A DNA stretch of 40,480 nt from a virus (IMGVR_UViG_2718218098_000005:1-40480), one strand, 5' to 3'; shown: positions 23,991-36,062, counted from the first letter of the stretch. Notes: generated from the letters alone by a model not told the origin. Made by a program: numbers and translations.

Positions 23991-24065
<75 letters not shown>

Positions 24066-24068
24066 ATA

Positions 24069-24144
<76 letters not shown>

Positions 24145-24146
24145 AC

Positions 24147-24223
24147 TGGACCGCCACCGGGGACTCGAACCTCGCACACTCAACTTAAAGTGTTGACGCT
24201 CTTTCCTGATGAACTAGTAGCGG
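24147..24223 (-). tRNA. tRNA-like, probable anticodon TTT (Lys) with C33
   Basis: Acceptor CCGCTAC/GTGGCGG, 5-bp anticodon stem TCAAC/GTTGA, loop ACTTTAA, T-loop TTCGAGT, CCA encoded. Confidence 0.5.
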
Positions 24224-24224
24224 T

Positions 24225-24300
24225 TGGTGGCCCTGGCTGGATTTGAACCAGCGACCTGGCGATTATGAGTCGCTCGCTCTCACCACTGAGCTAAAGGGCC
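24225..24300 (-). tRNA. tRNA-Ile2-like (anticodon CAT; ileX/ileZ type)
   Basis: Strong similarity by recollection to E. coli ileX; anticodon loop CTCATAA; CCA encoded. Confidence 0.8.
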
Positions 24301-26616: not shown

Positions 26617-26841
26617 TTACCTCCAGATGCGTTGCTGGAATGTGCGGGACGGACGCGGTGGCGTTCGGAATAAGGGAGCCTGACGGAGATTATCCAGTGA
26701 CGATATTAGCCATTCAGCTTGTTCTTCAGTGCAGGGGTCATGCTGGAACCAGTAAGATTTAAATGCGTGAGAGCGCCGCCCGTGCCTGCTGGCAAAGACG
26801 GCTGAATTATCAGAATTGTGTAGTCTGGAATTTTGCGCCAT
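26617..26841 (-). CDS. Hypothetical protein (74 aa), translationally coupled to ydfU
   Basis: ATG 26841 with GGAGAAA 7 nt upstream; stop adjacent to ydfU GTG. Confidence 0.5.
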   Translation of the reverse strand: MAQNSRLHNSDNSAVFASRHGRRSHAFKSYWFQHDPCTEEQAEWLISSLDNLRQAPLFRTPPRPSRTFQQRIWR

Positions 26842-27168: not shown

Positions 27169-27292
27169 CTTCAGAATCCTTCCAGATAAATAGCACCCCC
27201 CTGTTCGGGGTCCATCCCTCTTCTCCCTGCGCGCTACTTAAGTATTTTTGATTCTATTCCGGCACCGTCCAAAACTTCAAATGCATTGAAAA

Positions 27293-27320
27293 TCAAAACA
27301 AAAACCCGCCGAAGCGGGTT
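27293..27320 (-). terminator. Terminator downstream of hok
   Basis: Minus strand AACCCGCTTCGGCGGGTTTTTGTTTTGATTTTC. Confidence 0.55.
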
Positions 27321-27388
27321 AAGTGCGGGTGCGTTGAGGATGCCTGACACATCAGAGGTGGCGAGGGATTTCACCCTCGCCTGGTCTC

Positions 27389-27544
27389 TTACTCCTCAGG
27401 TTCGTAAGCTGTGAAGACAGCGACCTCCGTCTGGCCGGTTCGGATTCGTACCTCGCAGAGGTCTTTCCTCGTTACCAGTGCTGTCACTATGACGGTTAAA
27501 CAGATGACGATCAGGGCGATTAACATCGCCTTTTGCTGCTTCAT
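27389..27544 (-). CDS. hokD: Hok/Gef family type I toxin (HokD/RelF-like, 51 aa)
   Basis: MKQQKAMLIALIVICLTVIVTALVTRKDLCEVRIRTGQTEVAVFTAYEPEE matches HokD by recollection; single TM + conserved Cys. Confidence 0.85.
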   Translation of the reverse strand: MKQQKAMLIALIVICLTVIVTALVTRKDLCEVRIRTGQTEVAVFTAYEPEE

Positions 27545-27732
27545 AGCCTGCTTCTCCTTGACCTCTCGGTCCGTAAGAGGCAATCTATATGTGACGAGCA
27601 TATAGGGGCCTCACTTCGATTTATAGTCGGGTGGGGCTTTTATCTATCTGCCTTTGGTGTTCATGCCTGAGGCAGATAGCCTCAAGCACCCGCAGCAATT
27701 CTACTTAACTCTCCTTTTCCCGCAAACCGTTT

Positions 27733-27816
27733 TTATCCCCAGCGGCAAATCGAATACACCACCAGCGCCACCGCCATCGCAATTCCTACCGTTGTGAATG
27801 CTTCAGGCCAGGTCAT
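27733..27816 (-). CDS. Unannotated small membrane peptide (27 aa, single TM)
   Basis: MTWPEAFTTVGIAMAVALVVYSICRWG; AGGAGG 7 nt upstream; ATGA overlap with stop of upstream gene; below ORF-track size cutoff. Confidence 0.45.
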   Translation of the reverse strand: MTWPEAFTTVGIAMAVALVVYSICRWG

Positions 27817-28208
27817 CGATTCACCTCCTGCTCAATATTTTTAAGGTCATTTTCCGCATACAGTATTGCTGTCCTGGTTGCTCGTAACCGGGCTTTGGCG
27901 TTTTTCTCTTCACGTTCAAGTTTTGCCACAGCTTCACGAAGAGCATCTCGCTTTGCATAGAGTGATTTAATCTCTGATACGATGTTTTCACCGTTTCTCG
28001 CACGGTCGAGAACAAGTTCGAACGGATCTAAAGTCAATCCACACCGTTTGCAGGTAATCGTACGATTCACTTCTGAAATTGTTGTACGGATATGCTGACA
28101 GCATTTTTGCTCGACACTTTTTTCGTCGGTTATCACAACGTTGAGAAGTCCTTCCTCCTCTGATTTTGGCTGTACCAGAGTGATAACATTGTCGACTTCA
28201 TTTTTCAT
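27813..28208 (-). CDS. Hypothetical zinc-ribbon + coiled-coil protein (paralog A2)
   Basis: C-x-H ... C-K-R-C-G motif then coiled coil with EKNAKARLR; paralogous to 30638..30994. Confidence 0.6.
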   Translation of the reverse strand: MKNEVDNVITLVQPKSEEEGLLNVVITDEKSVEQKCCQHIRTTISEVNRTITCKRCGLTLDPFELVLDRARNGENIVSEIKSLYAKRDALREAVAKLEREEKNAKARLRATRTAILYAENDLKNIEQEVNR

Positions 28209-28873
28209 CAGTTCACCTCCTGCGGTGGCTCCGGTAGCGGCATCCAGTGAGTTGCCTGCTCAATACCATTACCCGGCTTAATCGTTGCTTCTCCTCGCCG
28301 GAATGTGCTTCCTGTATAGCGTGCGGAGCATATTAGCGGTTCAACCAGAGAGCTATCGAAATTCACCGAAATAAGCACGTTCTGGTTCTTTTCCGGCATT
28401 CGCTCACCACAGCTTATCCAACCAGCCGGAGTTCCCGGAGAGCTGGTTGACGTTTCCGAGATTTCCCGAAAATTGTTGGTTGACGAATTCTTATTTTCCC
28501 GAAAGTTTCCGGCCTGAAGCATGGCGACGCGGCAATCGTTCCATCCTTCAGCATAATCACTATACGCAAGAGGCCAACCTCTTATGTATTCACGCGGCAA
28601 CTTATCAGGCACTACCAGCGCTGGCGGCGCGGAGAATAGTGGTTTAGGTGATATTTCCGCACGTTTTGCGTATGCTTCAACTGTGTCAGGGTTAAACAGG
28701 ATTATGTTTTCACCGCATTCCCACGCCACCGGCTCTGCTTCCAGTGACGCCAGTGCGATACGAAACACATTGGCAAGCAGGCTGTCTGAAGATTGGTTAT
28801 CGTGCGCCGGGTCGCTCAGGAAACCAGTGATGAATGATTTAATTTCCGCGTTTTCTCTGGTAATAGTGGTCAT
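28208..28873 (-). CDS. Hypothetical protein (paralog B2) with C-terminal DUF551-like segment
   Basis: N-terminus MTTITRE and RIALASLEAEPVAW shared with 29081..29593; C-terminal ..ATHWMPLPEPP. Confidence 0.6.
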   Translation of the reverse strand: MTTITRENAEIKSFITGFLSDPAHDNQSSDSLLANVFRIALASLEAEPVAWECGENIILFNPDTVEAYAKRAEISPKPLFSAPPALVVPDKLPREYIRGWPLAYSDYAEGWNDCRVAMLQAGNFRENKNSSTNNFREISETSTSSPGTPAGWISCGERMPEKNQNVLISVNFDSSLVEPLICSARYTGSTFRRGEATIKPGNGIEQATHWMPLPEPPQEVN

Positions 28874-36005: not shown

Positions 36006-36062
36006 TTTCTGGTGACGTTTGGCGGTATCAGTTTTACTCCGTGACTGCTCTGCCGCCCTTTT
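36006..36062 (+). ncRNA. dicF: DicF small RNA (ftsZ-targeting sRNA)
   Basis: TTTCTGGTGACGTTTGGCGGTATCAGTTTTACTCCGTGACTGCTCTGCCGCCCTTTTT matches E. coli DicF by recollection incl. terminator hairpin; located just upstream of dicB. Confidence 0.85.

Follow-up and report, generated by a model that had tools for sequence, protein, structure and literature searches.

A probable full-length hokD-type hok/mok/sok cassette in the nin region of a lambdoid Escherichia coli prophage

The viral DNA stretch IMGVR_UViG_2718218098_000005:1-40480 (40,480 nucleotides [nt], referred to as a whole as the window) carries on its minus strand, at 27725..27297, a locus that is very probably a complete hok/mok/sok type I toxin-antitoxin cassette, a full-length hokD allele whose mechanism would follow the plasmid R1 hok/sok paradigm. 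All the regulatory parts known from R1 are in place: a weak hok promoter, tac/fbi, ucb/dcb, the mok frame, the Sok target hairpin, an antisense Sok gene, the 3' stem and a terminator. By its likeness to the known loci it would be a textbook cassette of the hokC/hokD subgroup. The evidence taken directly from the locus consists of these sequence elements, their conservation and covariation, and a predicted refolding switch. The kind of cassette is ordinary and already known: the identical sequence is present in RefSeq, and prophage hok loci have been catalogued (bioRxiv 10.1101/2025.08.07.668861). Coordinates are those of the window; hok, mok and the elements of their mRNA lie on the minus strand (-), and the Sok gene and its promoter on the plus strand (+).

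The toxin gene, its leader and its transcript

The 51-amino-acid (aa) Hok/Gef toxin open reading frame (ORF) reported in the first-pass annotation is confirmed. The hok gene occupies 27389..27544 (51 aa plus stop; ATG at 27544, stop at 27391-27389), and its product matches Pfam HOK_GEF (PF01848) with an E-value of 2.8e-23 and 81.7 bits (cutoff 22), covering 42 of the 42 profile positions. It belongs with the small Hok/Gef toxins, which are about 50 aa long and have an N-terminal transmembrane helix and a conserved RKDLCE..R core; the gene is preceded by the Shine-Dalgarno sequence GGAG at 27556-27553 (-). The peptide is identical at 51 of 51 residues to HokD of E. coli K-12, which has been used as a toxic control (bioRxiv 10.1101/2025.08.07.668861).

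Upstream of hok, 27691..27542 (-) matches the Rfam family RF01794 ("sok") over model positions 1-157 of 157 (107.3 bits, gathering threshold 59; E-value 4e-25). Because the model starts at the 5' end of the hok mRNA and ends at the hok AUG, this match is the hok-sense leader, and Sok is the reverse complement of its middle part. An annotation taken over from the hit would place 'sok' on the wrong strand, with a length of about 150 nt instead of about 55 nt. Four sub-threshold Rfam matches were dismissed: isrK (25.2 bits), rsmX (19.7), mir-214 (17.2) and, on the plus strand, a palindromic echo of the sok model (18.1). The match to isrK, a family of small RNAs from Salmonella prophages, falls on the hok 3' untranslated region (27299-27380 (-); gathering threshold 50, E-value 0.0046) and probably reflects just two hairpins with similar spacing.

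The predicted full-length hok mRNA is about 395 nt long (27297..27691), its 5' end being taken from the start of the RF01794 match and from the alignment with R1-type hok, and its 3' end from the terminator. A -10 hexamer, TAGAAT (27698..27703), lies 6 nt before the predicted +1 (G27691), and a -35 hexamer, TTGCGG (27720..27725), placed by its position relative to the conserved 5' end, is separated from it by a 16-nt spacer. This promoter region is identical to that of the hokW locus of Stx2 phage I, and a TAnAAT-like hexamer occurs at an equal distance from GGG(T/C)GC in the Escherichia, Kluyvera and Photorhabdus homologues. The terminator scan gave an intrinsic terminator at 27297..27320 (AACCCGC UUCG GCGGGUU followed by UUUUUGUU), with the stem at 27320..27303 and then TTTTTGTTTT, which bears out the terminator previously noted 3' of the toxin ORF. 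The span given in the first-pass annotation, 27293-27700, thus covers the transcript and leaves out the hok promoter at 27698-27725. A generic promoter scan flagged a single site, TTGAAG-18-TAGAAT at 27280..27251 (-), which lies between the hok terminator and the start of a rem-like gene (27168); this stretch is nearly identical in K-12 and may be a promoter for rem.

The mok frame (27389..27601) encodes 70 aa, MLVTYRLPLTDREVKEKQA followed by Hok. Its ATG at 27601 is the position to which the mokC ATG of MG1655 aligns, and the mok Shine-Dalgarno sequence, GAGG, lies 7 nt ahead of it. Since 57 nt separate the mok and hok ATGs, the two genes are in frame, and they share the stop codon. The R1 locus has mok in another frame than hok, an arrangement that was rejected for the window on account of this spacing. 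Among 41 full-length homologues the in-frame state is the commoner, being found in E. coli prophage hokD loci, hokC loci, Photorhabdus and Pantoea, whereas a minority (phage Rac, Kluyvera and a few others) have the out-of-frame spacing of 58 nt. The single base that separates the two spacings falls inside the Sok -10 region.

The codon for Tyr47 of Hok lies within UACGAA (27401-27406 (-)), six bases that are invariant in 36 of 36 homologues. UACG is a TadA A-to-I editing context, and in the predicted fold of the window's mRNA UACGAA sits in a short single-stranded linker. Tyr-to-Cys recoding as in hokB has been seen in hokC, hokD and hokE (bioRxiv 10.1101/2025.08.07.668861). Editing at Tyr47 would give a second Cys for a disulfide with Cys30.

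Folding of the hok mRNA

The predicted 395-nt mRNA has a minimum free energy (MFE) of -161.6 kcal/mol (z = -8.0 against shuffles). These fold z-scores, together with the Pfam and Rfam E-values, rule out a chance ORF or chance repeats. The most diagnostic repeat, which was absent from the first-pass list, is a long-range complementarity between the two ends of the mRNA, about 350 nt apart: a repeat search paired 27686-27694 with 27324-27332 (9 of 9 positions) and extended this by 27668-27685 with 27334-27351. The tac element at the mRNA 5' end (GGGUGCUUGAGG, 27680..27691) is the partner of fbi in the MFE structure, and fbi (CCUCAACGCACCC, 27327..27339), located by repeat search, MFE, duplex prediction and covariation, is complementary to it. 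The resulting 12-bp pairing (27691-27680 with 27339-27327) has a duplex energy of -21.5 kcal/mol and is predicted with a probability of 0.99 in the full-length RNA; fbi lies 49 nt past the stop codon, as in the homologues.

The ucb box (AAAAGCCCC, 27633..27641) pairs in the predicted full-length RNA with the dcb box (GAGGCC, 27608..27613), which contains the mok Shine-Dalgarno sequence; in RNA lacking fbi, ucb is predicted to pair with the 5' end instead. The ucb/dcb pairing was found by MFE and partition-function folding and is also present in the Rfam consensus. Around the mok AUG, repeat search and folding gave the Sok target stem-loop (27585..27605), with arms CUAUAUG and CAUAUAG and a loop, CUCGUCA, that contains the YUNR motif CUCG. 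The hok start region is buried in a long helix (27407..27548) formed by 27548-27535 with 27421-27407.

The two stems listed in the first-pass annotation correspond to a conserved leader hairpin and a conserved 3' stem, whereas the regulatory core, the tac/fbi and ucb/dcb switch, had not been named there. The leader hairpin (27644..27679; 27679-27666 with 27657-27644) was recovered by repeat search, folding and covariation, and contains the inverted repeat CTATCTGCC (27644-27652) / GGCAGATAG (27671-27679) as part of a 21-nt imperfect inverted repeat. The 3' stem-loop (27360..27381, GGCGAGGG / CCCUCGCC), supported by repeat search and covariation, has a perfect 8-bp stem, GGCGAGGG/CCCTCGCC (27360-27367 / 27374-27381), and is probably the stop point of 3' trimming.

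The nascent hok transcript of the R1 type forms a metastable 5' hairpin. In the window, an alternative 5' hairpin at 27663..27689 (arms 27689-27679 / 27673-27663), which matches one of the inverted repeats from the repeat search, is the predicted fold of the first 52 nt of the mRNA (-19.8 kcal/mol, z -3.2). By analogy with R1, this is a candidate for the metastable hairpin.

Covariation and the predicted refolding switch

Related loci (53) were taken from species-representative genomes, and the MFE structure of the window was projected onto an alignment of 36 distinct mRNAs from six genera; controls were slid structures, in which the partners were moved by 1-3 columns, and 500 shuffles. Standard pairs occupied 88% of the cells versus 40-47% in the slid controls, and 31 pairs were changed on both sides versus 10-18, a comparison that favours the scored structure because it was derived from the window's own sequence, itself in the alignment. 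In the 500 shuffles, neither the percentage paired nor the number of both-side changes ever came up to the observed value. Helices with covariation support are tac/fbi (3 pairs changed on both sides), the leader hairpin (helix 2; 12 pairs, 4 both-side changes, 87.7% of cells paired), the ucb/dcb hairpin, the hok-start helix (helix 8; 13 pairs, 4 both-side changes, 93.2% paired) and the 3' stem (helix 16; 8 pairs, 3 both-side changes, 97.9% paired).

The complement of the first 12-14 nt was found 45-49 nt past the stop codon in nearly all full-length homologues. Compensatory changes in tac/fbi include GGGUGC/GCACCC in Escherichia and Kluyvera versus GGGCGC/GCGCCC in Photorhabdus and Pantoea, and GAGG/CCUC versus GAGA/UCUC versus GAAG/CUUC. 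The hairpin around the mok AUG, with its GAGGC..GCCUC outer stem and a variable inner stem, was present in 32 of 32 distinct homologues, and YUNR was found in the target loop of 19 of the 32, including the window.

Partition-function folding was then compared between the full-length RNA and RNAs from which fbi had been removed by ending them at 27345, 27355 or 27389. The predicted probability of ucb/dcb pairing was 0.80 in the full-length RNA versus 0.02-0.11 without fbi, that of tac/ucb pairing 0.00 versus 0.74-0.82, and that of the hok Shine-Dalgarno sequence being unpaired 0.03 versus 0.41-0.62. In these thermodynamic predictions loss of fbi flips tac from fbi to ucb, reproducing in silico the refolding switch of the R1 model. 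Since the bases of ucb and tac are nearly invariant, covariation cannot bear on the tac/ucb pairing.

The antisense Sok gene

The annotated sokC of MG1655 (16952..17010) maps to 27593..27647 (+) in the window, and in the same transfer by alignment the hokC ATG falls on 27544. From these ends, the Sok antisense RNA is predicted to be about 55 nt long (27593..27647 (+)), consisting of a 9-nt 5' tail, a hairpin at 27602-27643 and a U-rich end. The fragment 27593-27650 folds at -22.1 kcal/mol (z -4.3), with the hairpin followed by UUUUAUCU, and a plus-strand terminator-like site flagged by the scan at 27628-27650 overlaps the Sok 3' hairpin. The flanks had been expected, in the first-pass annotation, to serve hok mRNA folding and a plus-strand Sok, and the RF01794 match, the fold, the sokC mapping, covariation and the in-silico switch support this.

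Alignment with known hok loci, of the kind proposed in that annotation, placed not only the mok frame but also a candidate Sok promoter, the integrity of which had been left open there. At the sequence level the promoter looks intact: a near-consensus -35, TTGACC, at 27558..27563 (+), a hexamer also present in K-12 sokC and 20 other homologues, is followed after 17 nt by the putative -10, CAATCT, at 27581..27586 (+), which is homologous in position to CACTCT of sokC and TAACCT of sokW. These elements lie exactly where the sokC start of K-12 and the validated sokW -10 predict them, and TTGACC-17-CAATCT is a plausible promoter of the hokC type. When the sokW -10 TAACCT was mutated (primer YO-421), the promoter-less sokW no longer protected (Takada et al. 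2021, PMC8621323). Other -10 candidates further downstream (CTATAT, TATATG) were rejected, as their spacers to TTGACC would be at least 21 nt.

Three architectures of the Sok promoter could be distinguished in the family: TTGCCT-17-TAAYCT, which includes hokW; TTGACC-18-TAAYCT, found in the group with out-of-frame mok; and the TTGACC-17-C(A/C/G)TCT type, with CAATCT in the window, CACTCT in hokC loci and CAGTCT in Pseudocitrobacter.

The Sok hairpin variant of the window (27602-27643, CCCCACCCGACUAUAAAUCGAAGUGAGG) is nearly the same as that in two Photorhabdus loci and one Citrobacter locus (L041, L042 and L051). In most E. coli prophage hokD-type loci the hairpin is 21 nt longer and has an internal palindrome. 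This pattern of sequences suggests mosaic exchange or convergence of the Sok recognition module relative to its flanks.

Comparison with known hok loci

The references aligned with the window were hokC/mokC/sokC of K-12, hok/mok of phage Rac, hok/sok of the IncF plasmid p1658/97 and hokW of a 933W-type Stx2 phage, and the named elements all line up across the five sequences. The R1-type reference, p1658/97, was retrieved with a 433-nt R1 parB sequence, a query that matched many IncF plasmids at 100%.

The K-12 hokD locus (relF, in the cryptic prophage Qin) is nearly identical to the window over the hok coding region and the DNA that follows it, comprising the 3' stem, fbi, the terminator and sequence beyond, and has the same synteny, hokD being followed by rem-like, ydfU/DUF968 and Q genes. 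The homology, however, starts close to the gene, about 15 nt ahead of its ATG (window position ~27559), with no similarity upstream, and relE/relB occupy the place of the promoter of hok, tac, ucb/dcb, the start of mok, the Sok target and the greater part of the Sok gene. As relBE have replaced the leader in K-12, hokD is a truncated form there and the window holds the complete autonomous locus. The alignment accordingly rejected the K-12 arrangement, in which hok lies directly downstream of relE without a leader of its own, for the window, which has a full leader and no relBE.

The hokC/mokC/sokC (gef) locus of K-12 shares the architecture of the window, with mok in frame, its ATG 57 nt upstream, and the same 5' end, GGGUGCUUGAGGCU. 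It differs in the Sok promoter (TTGACC-17-CACTCT versus CAATCT in the window), in the Sok hairpin and target loop (CUGAACA versus CUCGUCA), and in its product, HokC being 50 aa long with several substitutions; it is a core-chromosome rather than a prophage locus, and is cut by IS186 just past the gene.

Only one close relative, hokW-sokW of Sakai prophage 5 (Sp5) and 933W-type Stx2 phages, has direct functional data; it is a working type I toxin-antitoxin system with its Sok promoter at a position homologous to that of the window (PMC8621323). Like the window's locus it belongs to a lambdoid prophage; the first 25 nt of its mRNA, like its hok promoter, are identical to those of the window, and the two loci share fbi and an in-frame mok. 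Hok is identical at 47 of 51 residues (the C-terminus being VDYESEK versus TAYEPEE in the window), the DNA is 84.5% identical over 93% of the locus, and the homology reaches upstream as far as window position 28249. In contrast, hokW carries a 21-nt insert in the Sok hairpin, which is shorter in the window, has the target loop CUGAACA, and uses TTGCCT-17-TAACCT rather than a hokC-type Sok promoter.

In R1/IncF hok/sok (parB) the alignable parts are the 5' end GG(G)YGCUUGAGGCU, the leader hairpin, the GCCCC/GAGGC boxes, the mok AUG hairpin, GCCUCUUAC, the Sok -35/-10, the hok Shine-Dalgarno sequence, the UACGAA motif, the 3' stem, fbi and the terminator, and the regulatory logic is the same. 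The R1 system is plasmid-borne, its leader is longer (173 versus 147 nt), its Sok promoter is TTGCGC-17-TATCCT, and R1 Hok is divergent, HokW being 44% identical to it (PMC8621323). In phage Rac the annotated mok is out of frame with hok, unlike that of the window.

Two further observations were made among the related loci. The Enterobacteriaceae genome MGYG-HGUT-00110 has two tandem hok cassettes about 560 nt apart (L031, 2259-2655 and 2821-3217), both with about 72% identity to the window. Near-identical hokD sequences also occur on short contigs (275-2995 nt) labelled Acinetobacter idrijaensis, Xanthomonas pisi and a Candidatus Scatousia metagenome-assembled genome (L020, L025 and L058), and are most likely E. 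coli or phage contamination.

Prophage context and neighbouring genes

A prophage found in five E. coli isolates from mice (M6, M9, M11, M15 and M19) matches positions 18000-40480 of the window with 100% identity. In M19 the genes, all on the hok strand, follow the order Cro/CI, YdaT, DnaT-like replication protein, P, small genes, a DUF551 protein, a hypothetical protein and hokD, and then Rem-like, a frameshifted ORF, DUF968 (YdfU-like), RusA, Q, tRNAs, holins and endolysin. The position of hok is thus the nin region (from the replication genes to Q) of a lambdoid prophage, and its orientation is that of the early-right operon. The DicF antisense RNA (Rfam RF00039) was detected at 36007-36058 (+) with 76.7 bits (gathering threshold 48) and is also present in Qin; along with the rem-like and ydfU-like neighbours of hok, DicF indicates that the prophage is a relative of Qin. 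At least 80% of 27250-27750 is covered in 3804 of 5426 complete E. coli genomes, and named phages also carry the locus, annotated as gef, MokW, Hok/mok or "host killer".

Upstream of hok, an unannotated hydrophobic ORF of 27 aa (MTWPEAFTTVGIAMAVALVVYSICRWG, 27733-27816 (-)) ends 42 nt before the hok +1, and its ATG overlaps the stop codon of the preceding 131-aa gene (ATGA). Other loci of E. coli and Shigella conserve it in this place, and in the hokW locus of Stx2 phage I (MTWPEAFANVGTVMAVVLVVYSICRWR), where the homology with the window extends through it, it shows conservative substitutions; this conservation suggests a real small membrane protein travelling with the cassette. The 131-aa hypothetical protein (27813-28208 (-)) has two CxxC pairs (CC..C, CKRC) and a sub-threshold match to a Cas12f1-like TNB zinc ribbon (E-value 0.0045; 17.5 bits, cutoff 26.3).

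Downstream, a 74-aa ORF between the rem-like and DUF968 genes (26617-26841 (-)) is the coding sequence (CDS) marked as frameshifted (pseudogene) by RefSeq in M19. ARAGORN found a cluster of four tRNA genes downstream of Q (23991-24300 (-)), Met/Ile2-CAT, Lys-TTT, Thr-TGT and Gly-TCC, of which Rfam reports three; the M19 RefSeq record gives only tRNA-Ile and tRNA-Gly there.

Proposed mechanism and possible roles

The R1 hok/sok model was established by the Gerdes laboratory. Applied to the window, it would have the weak promoter yield a stable, inert 395-nt hok mRNA in which tac is locked to fbi, ucb is paired with dcb, and the mok and hok Shine-Dalgarno sequences are buried. Slow 3' trimming would take off the terminator and fbi, after which the 5' end would re-pair with ucb and the target hairpin around the mok AUG would form. 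The refolded RNA would then be bound at this mok initiation hairpin by the short, unstable plus-strand Sok, and the duplex destroyed by RNase III. Were Sok missing, the refolded RNA would be translated, from mok first (in frame with hok), which would open the hok start, and Hok would enter the inner membrane and damage it, so that the cell would be killed or arrested. Sok transcription, 3' trimming, RNase III cleavage and toxicity would be expected in the window's strain by homology with the characterized loci.

Some points weigh against a complete, working cassette. The generic promoter scan left the hok and Sok promoters both under its threshold, which for hok is in keeping with a weak promoter; the Sok -10 CAATCT lacks the usual first T and has 2 of 6 consensus matches (the second-position A and the final T being kept); the Sok promoter type and the in-frame mok are those common to hokC; and the covariation score had the advantage over the slid controls noted above. 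The poor match of CAATCT to the consensus would also fit a structurally complete but silent or decaying selfish relic, like the K-12 chromosomal hok loci, whose Sok promoter is weak or dead or whose mRNA is never activated, and which has no prophage role. Neither post-segregational killing nor rifampicin activation was reportedly obtained with chromosomal hokA/B/C (bioRxiv 10.1101/2025.08.07.668861), and the truncated hokD of K-12 implies that loss or damage of the locus can be harmless. Yet every element in the window is intact and its ORF is identical to the toxic HokD, the compensatory changes indicate continuing selection on the RNA structure in the family, and a toxin with a dead antitoxin promoter should be counter-selected, which does not fit a locus as widespread in complete E. 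coli genomes as this one. Moreover, K-12 expresses sokC, whose promoter is of the same type: sokC and mokC RNAs and an RNase III-cut duplex have been detected there (bioRxiv 10.1101/510842). A silent relic is decidedly unlikely, and a complete hok/mok/sok cassette remains by far the better reading.

As to what such a cassette would do for the prophage, killing coupled to induction is a reasonable possibility that we hold only tentatively: Sok would be lost on induction, Hok made before holin and endolysin, and phage release improved, as for hokW-sokW of Sp5. There, sokW vanishes after mitomycin C in a RecA-dependent manner, HokW appears about 1 h before endolysin, and deletion halves the released phage (PMC8621323). 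The window shares the hok promoter and mRNA 5' end of hokW, and its hok lies between Cro, the replication genes and Q in the same orientation; because hok is co-oriented with the early-right operon and Sok is head-on to it, read-through from pR on induction could silence Sok. This transcription-interference mechanism is, however, our own suggestion, the effect reported for hokW amounts to no more than about two-fold, hokW has a different Sok hairpin and Sok promoter type, and it is located near the att site rather than in the nin region, so that the wiring may differ. A role in addiction or defence, by which cells losing the prophage would be killed or other phages would meet abortive infection at host transcription shut-off, appears doubtful. 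R1 hok/sok does give post-segregational killing and lowers T4 plating (PMC8621323; bioRxiv 10.1101/2025.08.07.668861), and hok genes are four-fold enriched in prophages, but the tested chromosomal hok loci lacked post-segregational killing, hok was not enriched near defence systems (bioRxiv 10.1101/2025.08.07.668861), and nothing in the window bears directly on such a role. A more elaborate proposal, which we consider unlikely, is that the position of the cassette wires it into induction: early-right transcription would silence Sok head-on, 5'-extended hok RNAs would escape the tac/fbi lock, and Hok (or the 70-aa Mok-Hok) would act as an early lysis or abortive timer. A related idea is that the Sok hairpin and loop would be exchanged between cassettes as a specificity module avoiding cross-talk.

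Significance

The significance of the locus is mostly limited to correct annotation, as RefSeq marks the hokD CDS alone in the identical M19 sequence and omits mok, Sok and the RNA elements. Beyond this, the window gives a clean picture of the truncated hokD of K-12 before relBE took over its leader, and its allele is convenient for asking whether a hokC-type Sok promoter and an in-frame mok make a working system. With it, the prophage hok loci, for which a lysis helper, an addiction module and defence are the candidate roles, gain an example from the nin region.

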